Positions 2-23,752 of a stretch of 27,633 nucleotides of DNA are shown piece after piece. Position numbers and translations under genes: made by a program. Numbering within the stretch: the stretch's first letter is position 1; each line of letters opens with the position of its first letter. A model generated the notes under the pieces. The model was not told where the DNA came from. It saw only the letters and a program-made list of their open reading frames with translations, and did no database searches. Source of the DNA: a virus (Duplodnaviria > Heunggongvirae > Uroviricota > Caudoviricetes); IMG/VR virus record IMGVR_UViG_2630968911_000005. The stretch is one strand, 5' to 3'.

Positions 2-1297
2 TTAATTTTTCATTGCTTCGTTATGGGGCATGGTTGGGGCAAACTCGCTTAACTGTGTATTTAACAAAGCTACCTGTGCATTATTGTTTTCAGACATCCA
101 TTTTCCGTATACCTGAAATACCATTTGCGCATCTGCATGGCCCATCTGGTTTGCTATAAATGCCGGGTTAGCACCAGCTGTCAGCGACCAGCAGGCATAA
201 GTATGTCTCGACTGATATGATTTTCGATGGCGGAGTCCGGCACGTTTTATCGCTGCGTCCCACATCTGCCTTATTGAGTCAACGGTAAAATGGTCACCAT
301 AATTTTTTACTCTCGCTGACACTTCAGGTTGAAAAACAAAGGTGCATTTATGTTTTTCTGTTCTGCCATACTCTCTGAGGTGAACATCAATGATATGCTC
401 TTTGCTCAGTCTCGTTAATGTCATCTGACTCCGGAGAGCGTCGATTGCTGGCTTAATAAGATGAATGACCCGATTGGTTCCCGCCTGTGTTTTTGGTACC
501 GTGAAACGGTCTTTTGCTAAATTTCTCCTGATCATCATTGTTCCATTTTTCAGATCTATGTCCTCCCATCCAAGTGCACACAGCTCACCAGGGCGAACGC
601 CAGTATAAACAGAAACACACCATAAATTTTTGGCTTGCTGATTTCTGCACGCATCGATAAGACGGATGAATTCCTCCCGCGAAAGAGGATCCGGAATGGT
701 TCTTGATTCCTTTAATGGCGAGATCCCCTTAAACGGGTTATCTGCCAGGTAACCGTTATCAACACCAAACTGGAACACGGCGTTAAGATTTGTCATGTAA
801 TTATTTACAGTTACAGCCGATCTCCCTGGTTGTGTAACAATATAGTTACTTTTGGGGATCTGGTATCCAGTCAGTAGCTCTTTACGAACCTCCAGTAATT
901 TTTCTTTATTAATCGATGAGGCAAGATTTTTTTCACCGATTATGCTCAGGATATTTTTGATGACGGCACGGTATGTGTTGAGTGATGTTTTTGCGACTTC
1001 AGTTTCTTTCAGTGCCAGAAATTTTTCAGCCAGTTCTTTTATGGTTAAATCTTGTCGAGTCTCACCAAATTTTTCCAGATTGCGTGAGGAGGGAAACTGT
1101 TTTGCATAGTCGAAAACACCAGTTTTTATTGCGTAACAAACAGAGGCGCGTAGCTCACCTGCAACGCGCCTGTTTTTTGCTGTGTCAGGAACCCCCAGGT
1201 TTTCCCTGACTCTTACGCCTTTATAAACAAACCAGATACGTAATTTCCCTCCATGGTTTTCCACGCCTGTCGGATATTTCATTTCAACTTCTCTCAT
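2..1297 (-). CDS. Phage tyrosine integrase (site-specific recombinase), apparently intact; alternative start at 1282 (MKYPTG...)
   Basis: 431-aa ORF with stop at 2-4. C-terminal region has tyrosine-recombinase-like motifs (SRHTYA ... MGHA ... VYGKW). Lies next to an Xis-like gene at the prophage end. Confidence 0.9.
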   Translation of the reverse strand: MREVEMKYPTGVENHGGKLRIWFVYKGVRVRENLGVPDTAKNRRVAGELRASVCYAIKTGVFDYAKQFPSSRNLEKFGETRQDLTIKELAEKFLALKETEVAKTSLNTYRAVIKNILSIIGEKNLASSINKEKLLEVRKELLTGYQIPKSNYIVTQPGRSAVTVNNYMTNLNAVFQFGVDNGYLADNPFKGISPLKESRTIPDPLSREEFIRLIDACRNQQAKNLWCVSVYTGVRPGELCALGWEDIDLKNGTMMIRRNLAKDRFTVPKTQAGTNRVIHLIKPAIDALRSQMTLTRLSKEHIIDVHLREYGRTEKHKCTFVFQPEVSARVKNYGDHFTVDSIRQMWDAAIKRAGLRHRKSYQSRHTYACWSLTAGANPAFIANQMGHADAQMVFQVYGKWMSENNNAQVALLNTQLSEFAPTMPHNEAMKN

Positions 1298-1316: not shown

Positions 1317-1568
1317 TCAAGTAAGATGACGTCTTGGTCTTGCTGATGCCTGGCGCTCAATCCAGCGATCAATTTCTTCCAGGTTGTAAAAGCATGGACT
1401 GTTATCCCATGGCATACCGTCATGAGCGACATGCTTATATTCCCTTCCTTCCATAAACGATTTTTCCCGGGCCTTTTTTAACGTACCTTTTTTTATTCCT
1501 TTCAGCGCAATTAACTGCTCTTCGGATACCCATTTGCCGGGAGAGACAATCATGATTACTTCGCTCAT
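1317..1568 (-). CDS. Excisionase-like DNA-binding protein (Xis)
   Basis: 83-aa ORF directly upstream of int on the same strand. Contains GREYKHV, resembling the GREYLFH segment of lambda Xis as recalled. Confidence 0.65.
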   Translation of the reverse strand: MSEVIMIVSPGKWVSEEQLIALKGIKKGTLKKAREKSFMEGREYKHVAHDGMPWDNSPCFYNLEEIDRWIERQASARPRRHLT

Positions 1569-1640: not shown

Positions 1641-2183
1641 TTAAGAATCAGCCTGACTCGGGATCAGTTTTTGCCAGATAACTGAAACGTATTTTGCCAG
1701 GTAACGGGCGTCATCAAGTGCATTATGGCGCTCACCTTCGAATGGAATAGCCGTTCTGGCATCGAAGTCTATGGCTTTCCCCAGCTCAACGATTGTGCGT
1801 ACATCGCGATCGTTGTAGTAACGCCACGGGCAGGGGATCCCCTGCCGTTCGTATGAACGGCGCAAAATCGTGTTGTCGAAGTTGGCTCCATTTCCCCAAA
1901 CCTGAACAAAAAATTCACCGGAGTTTTCGTCGATAAATTCTCGCAATTGTAACAGTGCATCATCTAACGGGATTTCATCGGTCATAATGGCAGATTGCGC
2001 TTCGCGTGATTGCTTAAGCCACCATTTAATGGTGTCCCGATCAATGACTCCGCCAGCAGTTTCCAGATCGATAGTCTTACTAAATTCCGGTCCCATATCT
2101 CCGGTTTGCGGATCGAAAAATATTGCACCTATTGAGATGATCGGGGCATCAGGATTTTTTCCCATGGTTTCAAGGTCGATCAT
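1641..2183 (-). CDS. DnaQ-like DEDDh 3'-5' exonuclease; start uncertain (longest ORF runs to 2333, overlapping the upstream gene)
   Basis: Exo I motif MIDLETMG and Exo III motif HNALDDARY are present. The internal ATG at 2181-2183 avoids overlap with the upstream gene, whose stop is at 2231. Confidence 0.8.
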   Translation of the reverse strand: MIDLETMGKNPDAPIISIGAIFFDPQTGDMGPEFSKTIDLETAGGVIDRDTIKWWLKQSREAQSAIMTDEIPLDDALLQLREFIDENSGEFFVQVWGNGANFDNTILRRSYERQGIPCPWRYYNDRDVRTIVELGKAIDFDARTAIPFEGERHNALDDARYLAKYVSVIWQKLIPSQADS

Positions 2184-2230
2184 TAGATGGTCACACGTCC
2201 TGCTGGTGGATGTGATTTCGTGATGACCGT

Positions 2231-4111
2231 TCACCTTAATTGGGTGATCTGCCGTCTCGCCAGTTTCATTATCGCTATTGTGATGCTGATTGCCGCCAGT
2301 GTTCTCCTTGTGTGGATGTTCAGCGCCTTCCATTTCCTCCGGATCATCTCCTGAACTTCAACCTGATACTCTTCATCGAATGTTTCTTGGTATGTTGCGT
2401 CGCCCATCACCGCGCCACAATCAGGGCAGTTGCCGCCGCCGGTCTGACCGCAGGCGGTGCAGGCTTTTTCCACTTCCTGTTGCGCCACTGGTTCAGGCTG
2501 TTTCGTTTCTGGCTCGTTTTGTAACGCATTTGGACTGTTTTGTTCCGCTTTTTGGTAGTTCCGTTCCGATTCATGCTGGTTCTGGTTCACAGAATCGCGG
2601 GTCTGGAGCCCCTTAACCCATTTCGGATCATTCGGGTCACTAATCCCTTCAACAAATTCACCACGTGATGCAGCAAGCAACTTATCGGCGTCAGGCTGGC
2701 TGATATTGGCTGCCTGCATAATTTTGTTTACTTCGTCAGCGGTAACTTTTATCGGCTCTGGTTGTTCTGAATCTTCAGCGGTATCTACATTTTGCGGTAA
2801 GCCCGTGTATGTGCCATTTTTTCGGGCAAAATATTCTTCTTTTGTGATTTCAGTGGCGCCAGCAGCCAGTGCCTTATCCAGACCAGAGAGTTTGTTTGCG
2901 CGACCGTATTTTTCTCCGTCCTTATCTGCGAAGAGGAAATAGAACGGCCCCTCACGCTCTACAGATGGTTCAGCTTCCGGCGCGGTTTCATTTTTTGGGA
3001 TATCAGATACCTCAGTTTCCACTGCATCAGTTTGTGTTTCTGATGACTGGAGAACATCAACAGTGCCCAGGTCTGTTTCTTCATTCTCAAACACGCCCTT
3101 TGTCGTCAGGTATTCGCAGATATATTTGTTCAGTGCTACGGGATCTTTGTGAATGTCGATCGGACGCTCACGGACAAGGCCAAAAATAGTTTGGCGGTCG
3201 TAGCGAAGGGCATCAGGCTGTTTGCGCATTGATGCCGAGATACGCTTCCAGTCTTCGCGGTCGTTGTCGATAACTTCTTTTTTTGCCCAGCGATGGATGC
3301 TGCCGTCAATGTTTCCGGCATCCACATCACTAGGCCAGAGAGCGTAGGCCAGTTCGTCATCCAGTGTTTTCCATGTCTGCTTGTATTCGCGATGAATGGC
3401 AGCAATGACCGGGCTGATTTTTCCTGTTGAATTTTCAGTGTACTGTTGATTGGCTCTGGCGCGGGCGAGATCAACAACAGACGTGTATTTTCCGGTTTCC
3501 TTGCGTTCACCTTCGCGACGTTTTTTCCAGATGCGCATCTCTGCCTGAATTTCGGGCCATTTAGCACCAGGAATACATTTATGCTTAACCCACCCAATGG
3601 CGTGCAACTTAAGCTCCGGATACATGGCGTTAACTTCTGGCATTTTCATCAACGCTTCAACGATATGTCCGTCGAATGTTGCCATGTCTTCCTGCAACAA
3701 TTCCTGTGCGCTAATAACCATATCAACGGTGATGTTTTCACATGTGTCGAACTTAACCATGACAGCGTTCTGTACTTCAGGGGCCAGCTTGTCAAAAGTG
3801 ACGTTCATCGGATCGGATTCAGTCTCAACCGGGACAAAAGAAGCAGACTCCTCATCCCAGCGGTTTTCCTGCATATATTCAGCATCCCATGAATCGAGGG
3901 CAGGGCGGGGTATGCCAGGTTTATCCTCGCAGACAATAAATTTATAAGCGCAGTCCTGAGCAGCCGGATAATGTTCCAGGAATTGCCAGTGAAATTTTGC
4001 TCGAGCACGGCGTTCGTCGCCAGCTTCAATGGCTGTGGCTACAGCCACAGCGCCTTCTTCCCTTGTTGCCAGTTCGTCAGGAATAGCGGCGCAAATAAAG
4101 ACTTTACTCAT
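2231..4111 (-). CDS. Large early-operon protein, RecE (exonuclease VIII) N-terminal-region-like, ending in a Cys4 zinc ribbon; no recognisable nuclease domain
   Basis: Long ORF; ATG at 4109-4111 (MSKVF...) is preceded by GAGG 9 nt upstream. Internal segment KLLAASRGEFVEGISDPNDPKWVKGLQTRD resembles RecE as recalled. C-terminus has CTACGQTGGGNCPDCG. The acidic central region is low complexity. Confidence 0.6.
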   Translation of the reverse strand: MSKVFICAAIPDELATREEGAVAVATAIEAGDERRARAKFHWQFLEHYPAAQDCAYKFIVCEDKPGIPRPALDSWDAEYMQENRWDEESASFVPVETESDPMNVTFDKLAPEVQNAVMVKFDTCENITVDMVISAQELLQEDMATFDGHIVEALMKMPEVNAMYPELKLHAIGWVKHKCIPGAKWPEIQAEMRIWKKRREGERKETGKYTSVVDLARARANQQYTENSTGKISPVIAAIHREYKQTWKTLDDELAYALWPSDVDAGNIDGSIHRWAKKEVIDNDREDWKRISASMRKQPDALRYDRQTIFGLVRERPIDIHKDPVALNKYICEYLTTKGVFENEETDLGTVDVLQSSETQTDAVETEVSDIPKNETAPEAEPSVEREGPFYFLFADKDGEKYGRANKLSGLDKALAAGATEITKEEYFARKNGTYTGLPQNVDTAEDSEQPEPIKVTADEVNKIMQAANISQPDADKLLAASRGEFVEGISDPNDPKWVKGLQTRDSVNQNQHESERNYQKAEQNSPNALQNEPETKQPEPVAQQEVEKACTACGQTGGGNCPDCGAVMGDATYQETFDEEYQVEVQEMIRRKWKALNIHTRRTLAAISITIAIMKLARRQITQLR

Positions 4112-4203: not shown

Positions 4204-4395
4204 TTAAAGACCTGCCGGGATTTCGATATTATCCTGGTGAATAACTTTATCGACCGGGTAACAGTTACCGGGAATTTTCTGTTCGGTTGCTGCAGTCATA
4301 CACTCCTGCATTGTCCTGTGAACACTGACTGCAATATCAACTGGCTCTCCGGAAACAAGAAAAACTGTCAGAACAAGCACAAATGCTGAATTCAT
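4204..4395 (-). CDS. Small hypothetical protein with N-terminal signal-peptide-like hydrophobic segment
   Basis: 63-aa ORF (MNSAFVLVLTVFLVSG...). Its ATG overlaps the stop of the upstream gene (ATGA, 4392-4395), suggesting translational coupling. Confidence 0.5.
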   Translation of the reverse strand: MNSAFVLVLTVFLVSGEPVDIAVSVHRTMQECMTAATEQKIPGNCYPVDKVIHQDNIEIPAGL

Positions 4396-4580
4396 TGTGC
4401 ACATCCTTTTGGCATCAGACGTAAACGAGCCAGCATTGAAACAATGCATATTTTATTTAATAGCTCCCGTTCTTGTTTTCTCTTGTTAATGGCATCTTCA
4501 GTAAATACTGGGTTACTGATAGTGACACCAATTTCAAAACAACCTTCAGACGTATTAACGTTTGGTAATAACGTTTTCAT
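4392..4580 (-). CDS. Small hypothetical early-region protein (62 aa)
   Basis: ATG at 4578-4580 with GAGGA about 9 nt upstream. Sits where lambdoid phages carry kil/cIII-like small genes. Function not recognisable. Confidence 0.5.
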   Translation of the reverse strand: MKTLLPNVNTSEGCFEIGVTISNPVFTEDAINKRKQERELLNKICIVSMLARLRLMPKGCAQ

Positions 4581-4663
4581 TATCGCGTCCTCAACAATGA
4601 ATTTTGTGATGCAGTGCCTGGTGCCTCCAGGTGACGTTAACCAGTTAACAATTAACGCCGGAT

Positions 4664-4993
4664 ATGTGCTGTGGCAGCCGCATGTTCTGGTTCGATAAGT
4701 CTGACGAACGGGCGATATTCAGCGATATCAGAAAAGAAGGATACACATTACGCAATGGGAGACGCTTGATTATCAGCCCTGACATTATCGCAGATTTTCG
4801 TGCATTATCATTTGCAGACGCATCTTTTTCGATGGTTGTATTAGACCCTCCGCATCTTGAGAGTGTTGGTGATAACGCCTGGATGGGAAAGAAATATGGA
4901 CGGCTGAATAAAGATGCCTGGCGTGATGATTCGCGACAGAGATTTAAAGAAGCCTTTCGGGTGTTGAGGCCGCACGGCGTTCTGATTTTTTAA
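4664..4993 (+). pseudogene. Truncated DNA N6-adenine/N4-cytosine methyltransferase fragment (DPPH motif)
   Basis: ORF contains SFSMVVLDPPH followed by RVLRPHGVLIF, the pattern of amino-methyltransferase motif IV and a downstream block. It stops right after, with no continuation in any frame. Confidence 0.5.
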
Positions 4994-5415
4994 TGGAATG
5001 AAACGCAAATACCGGTAAGCCAGATTCTGGCACTGACAGACAGAAAACCTGTTATCTGTCAACGAACAGGGAAAAAACGATAAAACCCACTGGATTATTT
5101 TTATGAAAGAGGCATCCAGTGAGTAGATTCGTAAGGCTACAGATACGTATATCTGAATAATTAAATTCAGTTCTGTAAATAAAATTTAATCCTTAACCGG
5201 ATGGATTTCTGCACCCTCAGAACATCAGGAGGCCGCCCGAAAGGGCGGTAGTGAAATGCGAAAGTTCAAAATTATTATTGAAACGGGAATAGCTGGTGGA
5301 GATTTTGAGGATGTATTCGAAGTGGACGATGACGCAACACCTGAGGAAATTCATGACGGAGCATAAGAAATTTTCTTTAACTACTGCAATTACTCATACC
5401 ACGAAATAAAAGACG

Positions 5416-5607
5416 ATGAGGAAGAACAAAGTGGCTGATTTTTGTTCAGCTAAATATAACATCAGTTTTGAAGAGCGGGATGAACTATTAATGGACTATG
5501 GTGAGTTACGCGGTGGAAGTGCTGCTGATGTCGAATCCTAGCGTGATGACTATGAAGCGGGAAAAACTCCGGTCGAAGCATATTGTGATGAGTGGGGCGA
5601 TGAATGA
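5416..5607 (+). pseudogene. Small ORF with in-frame amber codon (TAG 5539-5541); read-through frame stays open to TGA 5605-5607
   Basis: Manual translation: MRKNKVADFCSAKYNISFEERDELLMDYGELRGGSAADVES-TAG-RDDYEAGKTPVEAYCDEWGDE. The extended frame ends in an ATGA overlap with the next ORF. Confidence 0.3.
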
Positions 5608-5891
5608 GCGAGATTAATTATCAGGAAGGGCATGAAACGGCGGGGCAAGCAAAACCAGTGGCATGGCGATATCGCTACGTGAAAAAAGGCGTTACGGACT
5701 TTCAGGGGAAGTAGTGGTCTGGTGACTGGAAATATGTACCGAAAAAAGAGGATTGTAACGACAGGCCGAACTATCAAATTCAGGCCTTATTCACTGCCTC
5801 ACCAGTCCCAGTTACATCAGAAGAACTGGTTAAAGCTGTGCACTTTTATGAACAACTAAAACGCGAAAATCCACCAACATCCGGCAACTAG
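5604..5891 (+). pseudogene. Small ORF with in-frame amber codon (TAG 5712-5714); 95-codon frame if read through
   Basis: Manual translation: MSEINYQEGHETAGQAKPVAWRYRYVKKGVTDFQGK-TAG-WSGDWKYVPKKEDCNDRPNYQIQALFTASPVPVTSEELVKAVHFYEQLKRENPPTSGN. The downstream segment reads like protein and has no stops for 58 codons. Confidence 0.3.
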
Positions 5892-6145
5892 ATTAATGGA
5901 TTAACTATGTCGGTTAAACGACCAGCCAACTGAAAAAGCGGAAACCTGATTACAGGTTGCCAGATAAGGCAATGAGCTACCTGGCGCGGAACGGACTGAT
6001 AAGTATGGGGAATGTTTTACGATGAACCTTTAGACTAAAGAGTTTGTAACGCTATGTAAGTGATTTTTTCTGGTTTAGATATTTATATGTCCGGCCAAAT
6101 TGAGGTGTGTTTAAATGTAATTGCACATTGATTGTAGGAGGAATA

Positions 6146-6325
6146 ATGAAAAACGCATTGCAGTTTTTGTTTGTTGCGTTCTGGTTGTTCGCATCATGTA
6201 TGCCCATCATCTTCACAGCAAGGTATATGGAAAAAGTTGATGTTTTGATATTAATATTTGGATATATAAATGCCCTTTTTTTAGGGGTGTTCATGGCGGT
6301 CATGTGCATTGAATACTGGCGGTAA
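6146..6325 (+). CDS. Small hydrophobic protein (59 aa, two predicted transmembrane segments)
   Basis: ATG at 6146 preceded by AGGAGG 6 nt upstream. Product MKNALQFLFVAFWLFASCMPIIFTARYMEKVDVLILIFGYINALFLGVFMAVMCIEYWR. Confidence 0.45.
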   Translation: MKNALQFLFVAFWLFASCMPIIFTARYMEKVDVLILIFGYINALFLGVFMAVMCIEYWR

Positions 6326-6659
6326 ATACAGCGAACTCCATTGGTTTAGTTGGATATTTACTGTGCTGGACAAAAACGGTTTGCGGGGAAATCTTAGTTA
6401 AGTAGAATGACTGCGGGTGCTTGAGGCTATCTGCCTCGGGCATGGACACCAACGGCAGATAGAGAAAAGCCCCAGTTAACATTACGCGTCCTGCAAGACG
6501 CTTAACATTAATCTGAGGCCAATTTCATGCTAGACACATGTAGGTTAGCCTCTTACGTGCCGAAAGGCACGGAGAAGCAGGCTATTGTTAACACCAAGCT
6601 GTAATGTCCCCTTTGAACCATTCTAAAATGTCCCCAGACAATTCTCTGGGGGATTTTTC

Positions 6660-8005: not shown

Positions 8006-8896
8006 CTACCCACGTAATATGGACACAGGCCTAAGCGAGGTTCTGGTTTTCAATTGTTCCGGACTGAGGCCGCCACACCAACTGTGCCGCCGCCACCGAT
8101 TGTAATCACATTCGATATAATTAAATACCGTTGCCCGCATTATTTCCCGGCTGATAAAGTGTTTTCCATGGATACATTCCACTTTCAGCGAATGAAAGAA
8201 GCTTTCCACGCAGGCATTATCGTAGCAGCAACCTTTTGCGCTCATACTTCCACGCAGATTATGCCGCTTCAGTTGCGCCTGATAATCTGCTGAACAGTAC
8301 TGGCCTCCACGGTCCGTGTGAACGATAACGTTCCGGGGCCTCTTACGCCGCCACAGCGCCATCTGCAGGGCATCGCAGGCCAGTTGCGCCGTCATGCGTG
8401 GCGACATTGACCAGCCAATAACGGCACGTGACCACAGGTCAATGACCACTGCCAGATACAGCCAGCCTTCATCTGTACGTAAGTACGTGATGTCTCCTGC
8501 CCACTTCTGGTTCGGGCCACTGGCGTAAAAATCCTGCTCCAACAGATTTTCTGACACAGGCAGGCCGTGTGCGCGGTAGCTGACCGGGCTGAACTTCCGG
8601 GAGGCCTTTGCCCTCAGTCCCTGACGGCGCAGGCTTGCCGCCACGGTTTTTACGTTAAAGGGGTAACCCTGAGCACGCAGTTCATCCGTCAGGCGTGGGG
8701 CACCGTAACGCTGTTTTGACCGGGTAAAAGCCGCGAGGACAACGCTGTCGCAGTGTTGGCGGAACTGCTGACGCGTGCTTATCCTTGTCCGCCGCTGACA
8801 CCACGTATACCAGCCGCTGCGGGCCACCCGGAGCACGCGGCACATTGCTTTGATGCTGAACTCAGCCTGATGTTTTTCAATAAAGACATACTTCAT
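8006..8896 (-). CDS. insF: IS3 transposase OrfB (InsF), DDE integrase core
   Basis: Protein matches IS3 InsF as recalled ([21 protein letters not shown] ... DRGGQYCS ...) except at the extreme C-terminus. Confidence 0.9.
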
Positions 8897-20040: not shown

Positions 20041-20562
20041 ATGGAAGTCAACAAAAAGCAGCTGGCTGACATTTTCGGTGCGAGTATCCGTACCATTCAG
20101 AACTGGCAGGAACAGGGAATGCCCGTTCTGCGAGGCGGTGGCAAGGGTAATGAGGTGCTTTATGACTCTGCCGCCGTTATAAGATGGTATGCCGAAAGGG
20201 ATGCTGAAATTGAGAACGAAAAGCTGCGCCGGGAAGTTGAAGAACTGCGGCGGGCCAGCGAGACAGATCTCCAGCCAGGGACTATTGAGTACGAACGCCA
20301 TCGACTTACGCGTGCGCAGGCCGACGCACAGGAGCTGAAAAATGCCAGAGACTCCGCTGAAGTGGTGGAAACCGCATTCTGTACTTTCGTGCTGTCGCGG
20401 ATCGCAGGTGAAATTGCCAGTATTCTCGACGGGATCCCCCTGTCGGTGCAGCGGCGTTTTCCGGAACTGGAAAACCGACATGTTGATTTCCTGAAACGGG
20501 ATATCATCAAAGCCATGAACAAAGCAGCCGCGCTGGATGAACTGATACAGCATGGACGTTGA
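20041..20562 (+). CDS. nohQ: Terminase small subunit Nu1 homolog; C-terminal about 11 residues replaced at a deletion junction
   Basis: [42 protein letters not shown]... matches lambda Nu1 through ...AAALDELI, then ends QHGR. Confidence 0.9.
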
Positions 20563-23500
20563 GTACGGTCAGTACAGCGTTATTCTGTTGGTGGAGGGAT
20601 TCCCGCCGTCACATGCCGGGACCATCACCGTGTATGAAGATTCTCAACCCGGTACGCTGAATGATTTTCTCGGTGCCATGACGGAGGATGATGCCCGTCC
20701 GGAGGCACTGCGTCGTTTTGAACTGATGGTGGAAGAGGTGGCGCGTAACGCGTCCGTGGTGGCACAGAACACGGCAGCCGCAAAGAAGTCAGCCAGTGAT
20801 GCCAGCACATCTGCCAGTGAGGCGGCAACCCGTGCGACTGATGCTGCAGATTCAGCACGTGCAGCCAGCACGTCAGCCGGACAGGCCGCGTCGTCGGCTC
20901 AGTCAGCGTCTTCCAGCGCAGGAACGGCATCAACAAAGGCCACTGAAGCCTCAAAAAGTGCTGCCGCTGCAGAGTCCTCAAAAAGCGCGGCGGCTACCAG
21001 TGCCGGTGCGGCGAAAACGTCAGAAACGAATGCGGCAGCGTCAGAACAATCAGCCGCCACTTCTGCATCCACCGCGACCACGAAAGCGTCAGAAGCTGCC
21101 ACCTCAGCCAGGGATGCGTCGGCTTCAAAAGAGGCGGCAAAATCATCAGAAACGAGCGCAGCCTCGAGCGCCAGTCGTGCAGCCTCCTCGGCAACAGCGG
21201 CAGGAACTTCCGCGAAGGCGGCAAAAACGTCCGAGACGAACGCAAAGTCTTCTGAGACGGCAGCGGGACAGAGTGCCTCCGCAGCAGCAGACTCAAAAAC
21301 AGCGGCTGCCTCATCTGCCAGCGCCGCGTCAACAAATGCCGGGCAGGCCTCAGCCAGTGCCACCGCTGCCGGAAAGTCGGCAGAAAGCGCCGCATCATCC
21401 GCTTCAACAGCCACAACGAAGGCTGGCGAAGCCACTGAACAGGCCACGGTAGCAGCGAGGTCAGCTTCCGCAGCGAAGACATCCGAAACGAACGCGAAAG
21501 CGTCGGAAACCAGCGCAGAATCCTCAAAAACGGCTGCCGCATCGTCAGCCAGTTCGGCGGCGTCATCGGCATCATCGGCGTCTGCTTCAAAAGATGAGGC
21601 GACCAGACAGGCGTCAGCAGCGAAGGGCAGCGCCACGACGGCATCCACGAAGGCGACAGAGGCAGCTGGCAGTGCGACGGCGGCAGCTCAGAGCAAAAGT
21701 ACGGCGGAATCCGCGGCAACGCGCGCCGAGACAGCAGCAAAACGGGCAGAGGATATTGCATCCGCCGTGGCGCTTGAGGATGCGAGCACGACGAAAAAGG
21801 GGATAGTACAGCTCAGCAGTGCGACCAACAGTACGTCTGAAACGCTGGCGGCAACGCCAAAGGCAGTAAAATCAGCCTATGACAATGCAGAGAAACGTCT
21901 GCAGAAAGACCAGAACGGCACTGATATACCCGATAAGGGACGCTTCCTGAACAACATTAACGCGGTCAGTAAAATAGACTTTGCTGATAAGCGTGGTATG
22001 CGTTATGTGCGGGTTAACGCTCCTGCAGGTGCAACATCTGGAAAATATTACCCTGTTGTTGTTATGCGTTCTGCTGGCTCAGTAAGCGAACTGGCATCAA
22101 GGGTCATTATCACCACGGCAACGCGAACCGCAGGCGATCCGATGAATAACTGCGAGTTTAACGGATTTGTTATGCCTGGTGGCTGGACTGACAGGGGGCG
22201 TTATGCTTATGGAATGTTCTGGCAATATCAAAACAATGAACGAGCCATCCACTCAATAATGATGAGTAATAAGGGCGATGATTTGCGCTCTGTGTTCTAT
22301 GTTGATGGCGCTGCTTTCCCTGTTTTTGCGTTTATCGAAGATGGCCTGTCAATATCCGCACCTGGTGCTGATCTCGTTGTTAATGATACGACCTATAAGT
22401 TTGGGGCAACAAATCCAGCGACTGAATGTATCGCGGCGGACGTTATCCTTGATTTTAAGAGTGGGCGTGGTTTTTATGAGTCTCATTCGTTAATCGTTAA
22501 CGATAATTTGTCGTGCAAAAAACTTTTTGCCACAGACGAAATTGTAGCGCGTGGTGGTAATCAGATTCGAATGATAGGTGGGGAGTATGGTGCATTATGG
22601 CGTAATGATGGCGCTAAAACTTACCTGCTGCTTACCAATCAAGGTGATGTTTATGGTGGCTGGAATACATTAAGACCGTTTGCTATTGATAACGCAACCG
22701 GCGAACTGGTTATTGGAACCAAACTGTCCGCAAGTCTGAACGGTAATGCATTAACAGCAACAAAGCTGCAAACGCCAAGACGGGTTTCTGGTGTTGAGTT
22801 TGATGGTTCCAAAGATATTACTTTAACCGCCGCGCATGTGGCTGCTTTTGCCAGAAGGGCAACGGATACATATGCCGATGCGGATGGTGGCGTTCCCTGG
22901 AATGCCGAATCAGGTGCTTACAATGTCACCCGCTCTGGCGACAGCTATATTCTGGTTAACTTCTATACCGGAGTCGGAAGTTGCCGGACCTTGCAGATGA
23001 AGGCGCATTACAGAAATGGTGGTCTGTTCTACCGTTCTTCAAGAGACGGTTATGGTTTTGAGGATGACTGGGCAGAAGTTTATACCTCGAAAAATCTTCC
23101 ACCAGAAAGCTACCCAGTCGGCGCACCAATCCCGTGGCCATCAGATACCGTTCCGTCTGGCTATGCCCTGATGCAGGGGCAGACTTTTGACAAATCTGCA
23201 TACCCGAAACTTGCAGTGGCTTATCCGTCAGGCGTTATTCCTGATATGCGTGGCTGGACGATTAAGGGCAAGCCCGCCAGTGGTCGTGCCGTATTGTCTC
23301 AGGAACAGGACGGCATTAAATCGCACACCCACAGCGCCAGCGCATCCAGTACGGATTTGGGGACGAAAACCACATCATCGTTTGATTACGGCACTAAATC
23401 CACGAATAACACTGGTGCACATACCCATAGTGTTAGCGGTACGGCTGCTTCAGCCGGTGCACATACCCATTCGATGACATTTGTTTCAGGTGGTTCCAGT

Positions 23501-23752
23501 GGTGCTCCGGGAAGTGGATCACCTGATTATTCTAAATACAGTGTTAACACTTCTTCTGCAGGCGCTCATACGCACTCTGTATCGGGTACTGCTGCAAGCG
23601 CAGGTGCACACGCACATACTGTCGGTATTGGTGCTCATACGCACTCCGTTGCGATTGGCTCACATGGACACACCATCACCGTTAACGCTGCTGGTAACGC
23701 GGAAAACACCGTCAAAAACATCGCATTTAACTATATTGTGAGGCTTGCATAA
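20552..23752 (+). CDS. stfQ: Side tail fibre protein (lambda Stf family), N-terminally truncated by deletion
   Basis: Begins at lambda Stf internal [12 protein letters not shown]. Long Ala/Ser/Thr repeats (AAKTSETNA...). C-terminal GAHTHS repeats and ...[14 protein letters not shown]. Confidence 0.9.

Follow-up and report, generated by a model that had tools for sequence, protein, structure and literature searches.

Among the closest known systems is RecE (exonuclease VIII) of the Rac prophage of Escherichia coli K-12, which occupies the same position in the early-left operon as the gene described here, just upstream of xis-int. The two proteins have a middle region in common, and sibling prophages fuse the RecE-type scaffold of our locus to the RecE nuclease domain. 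Compared with RecE, our locus has neither PF06630 nor PF12684, its DEDDh nuclease belongs to the opposite polarity class, and recT is absent downstream, where xis is found instead. Stand-alone PF16473 exonucleases of lambdoid and P22-like phages (for example epsilon34 gp34) are 49-59% identical over the entire 182-aa unit and share its catalytic residues, whereas our locus has this unit joined to the C-terminal side of a RecE-type scaffold of 620 aa. The stand-alone gene of Salmonella ST64B-like prophages is followed at once by a DUF1233 xis and int, likewise with no annealase; in epsilon34 and E. coli P22-like prophages its neighbours are a Rad52-like annealase, SSB, and Abc2.

YdfE, a pseudogene product of the K-12 Qin prophage, represents the same gene at the same locus, with dicB-ydfD-ydfE adjoining int at rspB. 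The K-12 copy is presumably an N-terminal remnant only, cut by an IS element, whereas our locus holds the whole gene minus one base. The closest solved structure is that of T4 DexA (PDB 8KEL; sequence E 1e-7, Foldseek E 2e-10, TM-score normalised by target 0.66-0.73), although identity is only about 21% and additional loops are present in the T4 protein. DexA acts as a 3'-5' exonuclease on DNA (PMC12153337), and both it and EcD (HREX) are stand-alone proteins, unlike the 823-aa product considered here. Comparable cases in Zheng et al. 2025 (PMC12315714) are their "RecE-2" proteins and their "sporadic DnaQ-type nuclease genes near int"; the main text of that paper does not describe the two as one fusion and does not give a junction.

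We analysed a 27,633-nt stretch of DNA (the window; IMG/VR record IMGVR_UViG_2630968911_000005), which comes from contig JPKJ01000017.1 of a 2015 Illumina/Velvet draft of E. coli G4/9. The original prediction for positions 1641-4111 was a RecE-like scaffold without a nuclease domain, with a DnaQ-like exonuclease as the next gene and no annealase. The best explanation in our analysis, to which we give a probability of roughly 85%, is a single gene of a Qin-type lambdoid prophage, namely the complete counterpart of the K-12 pseudogene ydfE and a domain-swap relative of RecE, that appears as a pair of open reading frames (ORFs) through one missing base. The features of the locus are:

2..1297, minus strand: tyrosine integrase (rspB attachment site; left end of the Qin-type prophage)
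1317..1568, minus strand: excisionase (DUF1233), directly downstream, with no annealase gene between it and the exonuclease gene
1641..4111, minus strand: full-length ydfE-type prophage "exonuclease" gene, 823 aa if intact, with a 1-nt deletion here (RefSeq CDS, PHROG 2082)
1653..2195, minus strand: DEDDh 3'-5' exonuclease domain, aa 640-820 (PF16473, DexA/Rv2179c-like)
2175-2177, 2169-2171, 1875-1877, 1725-1727, and 1710-1712, minus strand: catalytic D646, E648, D746, H796, and D801, respectively
2247..2249, minus strand: recombination junction at codon 622 (blastn against sibling prophage loci)
2345..2749, minus strand: segment nearly identical to K-12 RecE 453-592, with the LLAASRGEFV.GISDPNDPKWVKG motif, zinc ribbon, and acidic linker (BLASTP, NF007259)
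2349..2351, minus strand: site of the 1-nt deletion (intact CAG GAA GAT GAT, window CAG GAG ATG ATC)
2417..2461, minus strand: zinc ribbon CTACGQTGGGNCPDC, CxxC-x8-CxxC, aa 551-565, counterpart of RecE 517-531
2801..2959, minus strand: beta-hairpin/helix mini-domain, aa 385-437 (AF2 pLDDT about 80-86, disordered flanks)
3083..4111, minus strand: N-terminal domain, aa 1-343 (Pfam PF27430, YdfE_N)
4204..4580, minus strand: ydfD (DUF1482) and dicB, upstream in the same early-left operon

Both ORFs read on the minus strand: the first runs from an ATG at 4111 to a stop at 2231, and the second (1641-2333) holds the DEDDh exonuclease part. They cover positions 1-593 and 594-822, respectively, of the 823-position PHROG 2082. 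RefSeq annotates a single 2472-nt CDS at the corresponding place in strains 1303, G4/9, and N61; in 1303 and G4/9 its product is the 823-aa "exonuclease" WP_021570798.1, and the inducible phage PhiR42_1 carries an identical gene. The GenBank name of the 626-aa product of the window itself is "ydfE". As judged from these sequence comparisons, the gene is already known and annotated in RefSeq, and the two "genes" are halves of one very common E. coli prophage gene. The supposed next gene is thus the C-terminal domain of the same protein, as PHROG 2082 and the single RefSeq CDS indicate. The individual features of the original prediction stand, but the arrangement it proposed, a scaffold lacking a nuclease beside a separate exonuclease, is not supported.

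The gene is seen as two ORFs because one base is absent from the linker. On the plus strand at ~2350, the intact sequence reads CATCT[T]CCTG, and the bracketed T is absent from the window; the frame is lost after aa 588, within a linker that is predicted to be disordered (AF2 pLDDT 25-37 for aa 569-639). Of the 4480 complete E. coli genomes that contain the stretch, none matches the window without a one-base gap, and the best is 99.7% identical, with 322 bases against 321 in the window. The truncated 626-aa product is recorded for a single contig, JPKJ01000017.1, compared with 449 contigs for the intact product. In the closed genome of G4/9 (NZ_CP060073.1) the base is present and the ORF intact. 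The deletion is thus private to the 2015 G4/9 draft, and an error of assembly or sequencing is its most probable cause.

A genuine two-gene module, in which a nuclease-less RecE-like scaffold accompanies a separate DnaQ-like exonuclease, is in our estimate very improbable. The window as given does hold two ORFs, and a GGAGG precedes the ATG of the second, but the spacing between the two is merely 2 nt, and the last 38 aa of the first ORF are out-of-frame sequence. Precedents can be cited for both halves, as scaffold proteins with no recognisable nuclease domain occur elsewhere ("RecE-2" in PMC12315714) and DEDDh genes are also known as stand-alone genes; even so, the split rests on one absent base seen in a single draft contig, and the closed G4/9 genome has a continuous ORF. 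We rejected a programmed frameshift, since there is no slippery sequence and the frame is continuous in every other genome. It is somewhat less remote, though still unlikely, that the deletion is real, a mutation that recently turned the gene into a pseudogene in the G4/9 stock used for sequencing, in a prophage that was already defective. This prophage is much decayed, with two IS elements and with the immunity region and the head and tail genes missing, and the two SNPs near the deletion, at 2463 and 2486, match natural alleles of other strains. The closed genome of the same strain nevertheless lacks the deletion. In addition, a second 1-nt deletion, at 8054 in a short homopolymer, is likewise private to the draft, which was assembled with Velvet and had its gaps closed by sequencing of PCR products (PMC4358396). 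Mixing with a paralogous recE copy, as a source of the clustered differences at 2350, 2463, and 2486, was rejected because a Rac prophage is absent from G4/9 and its DEDDh region is single-copy.

Read as one protein, the 823-aa product consists of a YdfE_N domain, a partly disordered middle, a zinc ribbon, an acidic disordered linker, and a C-terminal DEDDh domain. YdfE_N combines helical parts with an alpha/beta subdomain at aa 1-95 and differs from the N-domain found in K-12 RecE (PF06630), and the mini-domain at aa 385-437 is kept in YdfE_N-type relatives. In precomputed hits, Pfam YdfE_N (PF27430) and YdfE_C (PF27432) both match the 626-aa product of the window and its close relatives, whereas an older Pfam release that predates these two families gave no match on the large ORF. 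The RecE-like segment that had been noted in the large protein is real: aa 258-600 match positions 271-565 of the 877-position NCBIfam model NF007259 (exodeoxyribonuclease VIII; E 1.4e-69), with a score of 235 bits that is below the curated cut-off of 1269 bits, and BLASTP aligns aa 262-627 to K-12 RecE 278-592 (E 2e-61). RecE 453-592 is about 90% identical here, including the LLAASRGEF motif, the zinc ribbon, and the acidic linker. Pfam finds no PF12684 PD-(D/E)XK domain in either ORF or in the intact protein, although this domain is present in both K-12 RecE and Gifsy-1 RecE; nor does it find the PF06630 Exonuc_VIII N-domain, which K-12 RecE matches at E 6e-98. In short, the relationship to RecE exists and the PD-(D/E)XK domain is absent, and neither result contradicts the original prediction. 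The zinc ribbon is also present in the large ORF (aa 551-565), as claimed. That the protein ends there in place of a nuclease domain is, however, an effect of the frameshift, which falls 24 codons past the ribbon. K-12 RecE has the same ribbon (C517-C531) and acidic linker, followed by its nuclease domain.

The DEDDh domain is putatively active, on the basis of a full-length Pfam match, an intact catalytic pentad, and a confident structural model. It covers profile positions 2-177 of 177 in PF16473 (Rv2179c-like; E 2.6e-67, 226 bits against a gathering cut-off of 27). The catalytic columns hold the same residue in 43-57 of 67 alignment rows, those that contain the DEDDh domain, and most of the remaining rows are without it. 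AF2 gives a pLDDT of about 90 for aa 640-820 and an RNase H-like DEDD fold, for which the top Foldseek matches are DexA, RNase T, Orn, and REXO2; T4 DexA is the best of these and the only sequence match in the PDB. The proposed identity of the downstream part as a DnaQ-like 3'-5' exonuclease is therefore upheld by PF16473 and the five catalytic residues, and its DEDD fold by structure prediction and Foldseek. The unit is also a complete stand-alone phage gene, which starts MNHLMIDLET. As a side observation, the Pfam and NCBI names indicate an exoribonuclease, which would go against a DNA substrate.

Comparison with sibling prophage loci places the start of this unit within a shared gene. Upstream of codon 622, the DNA is 98% identical to that of prophages that continue into the RecE PD-(D/E)XK domain and recT; downstream of it, blastn found no DNA similarity to the PD-(D/E)XK siblings at three loci. 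The same scaffold is found with either PF12684 or PF16473, and both N-domain types combine with both nuclease types. The PD-(D/E)XK variants have recT next, and the DEDDh variants have xis-int next. The gene is a domain-swapped RecE relative, with a complete DexA/Rv2179c-like unit exactly where RecE begins its 5'-3' PD-(D/E)XK domain. The dN/dS comparison between alleles yielded pairs that were either near-identical or saturated. Although the layout had been called unusual, this is wrong for E. coli, where the DEDDh version is the commonest version of the scaffold in prophages: DNA of the DEDDh domain occurs in 4069 of 5426 complete genomes (75%), at 8098 places and often in several copies per genome, compared with 1736 complete genomes (32%) and 1827 places for the RecE nuclease domain.

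The absence of an annealase was borne out. No RecT, Beta, Erf, Rad52, or Sak4-type gene was found in the window by Pfam searches of its ORFs or in the RefSeq annotation of the corresponding region, and none is annotated in PhiR42_1, a complete inducible relative. We detected no promoter-like site on the minus strand upstream of the exonuclease gene. Taken with the position of the gene after dicB-ydfD, this suggests that it would be expressed in the lytic phase.

Our search of the literature found no functional study of ydfE and no biochemical or genetic data for the protein. The early-left operon gene described here likely encodes an exonuclease that acts on DNA ends in the 3'-5' direction. 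The predicted substrate is DNA rather than RNA, given that DexA is the best match and that homologs lie in recombination modules: the stand-alone homologs that are 49-59% identical occur in modules ordered Rad52-like annealase, SSB, DEDDh, Abc2, and Zheng et al. 2025 take the same view of such recombination modules (PMC12315714). We propose that, upon prophage induction, the protein would be made from the early-left (dicB) operon, and the RecE-type scaffold would bring the DEDDh domain to DNA ends, where 3' strands would be removed. With no annealase encoded by the phage, the ends may then be passed to host recombination; trimmed of their 3' tails, they might for instance be left blunt and open to RecBCD loading. 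PhiR42_1 has only 6 Chi sites in 48.7 kb, a modest enrichment that is not decisive for RecBCD dependence. Against the proposal, a 3'-5' exonuclease gives the wrong overhang polarity for annealing or RecA loading and is of a kind that usually inhibits recombination (PMC12315714). More broadly, and tentatively, the scaffold could be a nuclease-agnostic DNA-end platform that has repeatedly been joined to exonucleases of either polarity, with the annealase-free DEDDh version serving either to prepare ends for host RecBCD/RecA or to attack host or competitor-phage DNA in the manner of DexA. The scaffold comprises, in this sense, the N-domain, the mini-domain, the zinc ribbon, and the linker.

Two other functions deserve consideration beside this platform, and we regard both as unlikely. 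The slightly better of them is an anti-phage defence exonuclease, either HREX/EcD-like (degrading 5hmC DNA of T-even phages) or TONDO-like (trimming RNA phages at their 3' ends). Among solved structures DexA is the nearest relative, and EcD, an E. coli DexA homolog, gives protection against T4 (PMC12153337). EcD is a different gene, however, as its primers encode MIDTET... and ...TIPETYD; we rejected it as a candidate for our gene, since these termini differ and it is absent among the 120 stand-alone homologs retrieved. In the HREX/EcD class, the Asp at DexA D90, which the tetramer requires, is missing and the equivalents of Trp152 and Asp169 are kept (PMC12153337). In our HMMER alignment the D90 position is Asp here, not Ala, W152 aligns with Tyr, and the alignment to DexA stops before D169; over the aligned part, the positions implicated in 5hmC recognition and in control of the tetramer seem to differ from those of EcD. 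TONDOs are prophage-borne DEDDh exonucleases with variable auxiliary domains (PMC13344964); they come from a tested ISG20-like set whose BLAST candidates were restricted to hits under 500 aa. Our gene adjoins int, a frequent site of accessory genes; it should nonetheless be silent in a lysogen because it has no promoter of its own and the early-left operon is repressed. The PADLOC match is weak and of a generic DEDDh kind, and RecE/RecT recombination uses the same scaffold. Slightly more doubtful than defence is an exoribonuclease that acts on phage or host RNA, for instance in processing early-left transcripts. It would agree with how Pfam names the family and NCBI the product, and RNase T, Orn, and REXO2 are the structural neighbours after DexA; on the other hand, the PDB sequence search finds DexA and not Rv2179c, homologs are located in DNA recombination modules, and on the RecE scaffold the domain takes the place of a DNA exonuclease domain. 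This alternative partly overlaps our main view because DEDDh enzymes often cut both DNA and RNA.

The finding in the window is in itself ordinary: a known prophage gene, already annotated, that is interrupted where a draft assembly lacks one base. It teaches that overlapping ORF pairs in draft genomes call for a frameshift check before they are read as gene pairs, and that frameshifts can produce calls of a "nuclease-less RecE". The gene itself nevertheless merits attention: 75% of complete E. coli genomes have it, and it couples a scaffold 98% identical in DNA to that of RecE/RecT modules with an exonuclease of opposite polarity and no annealase. The N-terminal region of RecE enhances linear-linear recombineering, and two natural versions of one scaffold offer a direct route to the study of its function. 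If the platform reading is true, roughly three in four E. coli genomes would carry a function in recombination or competition that has gone unstudied.

The window is a Qin-type prophage at rspB, and over its first 25 kb the best match is E. coli G4/9 (NZ_CP060073.1). The original prediction read 1641-4111 as two genes of an unusual recombination module: a RecE-like scaffold ending in a zinc ribbon instead of a nuclease domain, and a DnaQ-like (DEDDh) exonuclease, with no annealase.

Genes and ORFs around the predicted module
2-1297, minus strand: integrase, left end of the window
1317-1568, minus strand: excisionase
1641-2333, minus strand: 230-aa ORF, complete DEDDh domain
2231-4111 (from its ATG), minus strand: large ORF
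4204-4449, minus strand: ydfD
4392-4580, minus strand: dicB

The large ORF and the 230-aa ORF share 103 bases, read in different frames. The large ORF had no match in our local copy of Pfam. Its residues 258-600 matched NCBIfam RecE model NF007259 (profile 271-565 of 877, E = 1.4e-69; 235 bits, below the curated cut-off of 1269), and by BLASTP its residues 262-627 aligned with K-12 RecE 278-592, nearly identically from RecE 453 on. A zinc ribbon, CTACGQTGGGNCPDC, is present at residues 551-565. The 230-aa ORF matched PF16473 (Rv2179c-like) in full (profile 2-177 of 177, E = 2.6e-67), with the catalytic Asp, Glu, Asp, His, and Asp all present. No annealase gene was found in the window, either by Pfam search of its ORFs or in the RefSeq annotation of the same region. 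Since every feature was found individually, the predicted domains are real; the gene structure and the rarity inferred from them did not hold up.

Sequence comparison shows that the large ORF and the 230-aa ORF are one gene rather than two adjacent genes. They cover positions 1-593 and 594-822, respectively, of PHROG 2082 (823 positions), and in E. coli strains 1303, G4/9, and N61 the RefSeq annotation of this place is one CDS of 2472 nt, named 'exonuclease' or '3'-5' exonuclease'. Direct comparison showed that the window lacks one base at ~2350, where its minus strand reads CAG GAG ATG ATC versus the expected CAG GAA GAT GAT. Nor does the ribbon replace a nuclease domain. K-12 RecE, which the protein resembles in the near-identical region from RecE 453, the zinc ribbon, and the acidic linker, has the same ribbon (C517-C531) and linker ahead of its nuclease domain. 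AF2 modelling of the intact protein places the frameshift site in a disordered linker (aa 569-639, pLDDT 25-37), with the ribbon on one side and a confidently folded DEDDh domain (aa 640-820, pLDDT about 90) on the other. What looked like an unusual gene pair is a known, annotated gene with a one-base gap in the draft.

Of 4480 complete E. coli genomes holding the stretch around the deletion, none gave a gap-free match to the window; the best was 99.7% identical, with 322 bases versus 321 in the window. The truncated 626-aa product is recorded once (KGM65311.1, 'ydfE', contig JPKJ01000017.1), and the intact 823-aa product on 449 contigs. That single contig belongs to the 2015 draft of G4/9 (PMC4358396), which was made with Illumina GAIIx and assembled with Velvet, PCR products being sequenced to close gaps. 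The frame is intact in the closed genome of G4/9 that followed, which differs from the draft at only 7 positions in 27.6 kb, 2 of them 1-nt deletions in short homopolymers. Because the deletion is confined to one draft and the closed genome is intact, we regard an assembly error as the most probable cause of the split and a genuine mutation in the stock that was sequenced as unlikely. We note that the second deletion lies at 8054 (AAA to AA), inside an IS3 transposase ORF, that the five SNPs are at 2463, 2486, 8164, 22782, and 22812, and that three of the seven (2350, 2463, and 2486) lie together in a 140-bp stretch of the exonuclease gene.

The layout is also common: DEDDh-domain DNA occurs in 4069 of 5426 complete E. 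coli genomes (8098 places), versus 1736 (1827 places) for the RecE nuclease domain. Phage records carrying the gene include PhiR42_1 (99.9% identical, host ECOR13), HannyBb, Tritos, Evi, and mEp460; no annealase is annotated in the complete PhiR42_1 genome. The scaffold family is narrow (240 of 1.84 billion representative clusters). In G4/9, uspF, ttcA, and dbpA are contiguous (chromosome 2488361-2490798, locus L020), so the strain has no Rac prophage and the Qin-type gene is its only scaffold copy.

A search with aa 1-588 found the scaffold (Pfam YdfE_N + YdfE_C) fused either to PF16473 (811-826 aa, the majority) or to PF12684, the RecE PD-(D/E)XK domain (about 900 aa, scaffold some 99% identical). 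The former lie in the order dicB-ydfD-[gene]-xis-int, and the latter, at the Rac site, in the order dicB-ydfD-[gene]-recT-lar-...-xis-int. Between the two kinds, DNA identity is 98% from a point upstream of dicB as far as codon 622, after which the sequences are unrelated; likeness to stand-alone DEDDh genes starts at codon 644 (HLMIDLET), which corresponds to their own start (MNHLMIDLET). Among 41 long relatives chosen from clusters at 50% identity, the YdfE_N and PF06630 (K-12 RecE) N-domain types each pair with DEDDh, PD-(D/E)XK, or no recognisable nuclease domain. The same scaffold with either nuclease, the sharp junction, and the mixed N-domains indicate that the protein is a modular, domain-swapped relative of RecE. 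Membership of the RecE family itself was ruled out, as the protein falls below the curated score and lacks the PF06630 domain, the PD-(D/E)XK domain, and a recT partner.

Other relatives show further arrangements. A second YdfE_N branch (600-710 aa, P0149-P0194), from Klebsiella, Salmonella, E. albertii, and a Stenotrophomonas phage, lacks any recognisable nuclease domain and may correspond to what Zheng et al. 2025 called 'RecE-2' proteins; in Stenotrophomonas phage BUCT708 (L010:4974-7106) such a gene is followed by a Gp157-family gene and xis-int. Relative P0422 (703 aa) is a single ORF in which a RecE-type N-domain and the middle region are joined to a full RecT; it is either a natural fusion or another frameshift/assembly artefact. 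In phage vB_EcoS-813R8 (L019:4194-6635), a prophage with a different xis/int at the potC site, an 813-aa relative combines an unrelated N-domain (24% identity) with a 98% identical DEDDh domain, which points to a recent exchange of the exonuclease end among prophages.

The prophage is decayed elsewhere. The Qin immunity region (ydfC, ydfB, ydfA, dicA, dicC, DicF sRNA), which follows dicB in N61 and PhiR42_1, is absent from 4581-6600, where a truncated methyltransferase gene and pseudogenes lie instead; DicF had no Rfam match in the window. A sok-type antitoxin RNA (6415-6586, plus strand; Rfam 104 bits) just upstream of an ISNCY transposase gene looks like a second hok/sok-like remnant, as RefSeq annotates hokD elsewhere in the prophage. 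At 20041-23752, a 1066-aa tail-fibre ORF comes immediately after the Nu1 terminase gene; the head and tail genes seen in PhiR42_1 (about 19 kb) are all deleted, confirming that the prophage is defective.

Our analysis established the domain architecture, intact catalytic residues, exact swap point, operon position, and absence of a phage annealase. T4 DexA, a 3'-5' DNA exonuclease (PMC12153337), was the sole PDB sequence match and the best structural match of the DEDDh unit. A total of 747 phage records contain stand-alone homologs (49-59% identical): in epsilon34 and E. coli P22-like prophages they lie inside a canonical module (Rad52-like annealase, SSB, DEDDh, Abc2), and in Salmonella ST64B-like prophages directly upstream of xis-int with no annealase, as here. 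Zheng et al. 2025 (PMC12315714) described lambdoid Rec modules that contain DnaQ-like nucleases, sporadic DnaQ-type genes close to int, RecE relatives seemingly without a nuclease domain, and a class without a Rec module, aided by RecBCD (22% of lambdoid phages); their main text does not describe the scaffold-DEDDh fusion.

We put the probability that the protein acts as a 3'-5' exonuclease on DNA at about 0.7. Family names suggest an exoribonuclease, a role that the genomic context, favouring DNA, makes unlikely. We also consider a defence role, like that of the EcD/HREX or TONDO nucleases, unlikely: EcD is a different gene, DexA D90 is matched by Asp and W152 by Tyr in the HMMER alignment (which ends before D169), PADLOC gave a weak generic match, and in a lysogen the gene is expected to be silent. 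If the protein is a DNA exonuclease, our tentative proposal for its role is that it would be made after induction, as suggested by the lack of a promoter-like site upstream of its gene; that the scaffold would target the DEDDh domain to DNA ends for removal of 3' strands; and that the ends would pass to host recombination, possibly because blunting of 3' tails lets RecBCD load. The window holds 7 Chi octamers in 27.6 kb (2202, 5292, 12144, 12201, and 16768, plus strand; 12734 and 12786, minus strand), versus an expectation of about 0.4 per strand given the base composition; the one at 2202 is inside the exonuclease gene, and PhiR42_1 has 6 in 48.7 kb. What interest remains lies in a very common RecE-scaffold/DEDDh protein, and in the RecE scaffold in general.
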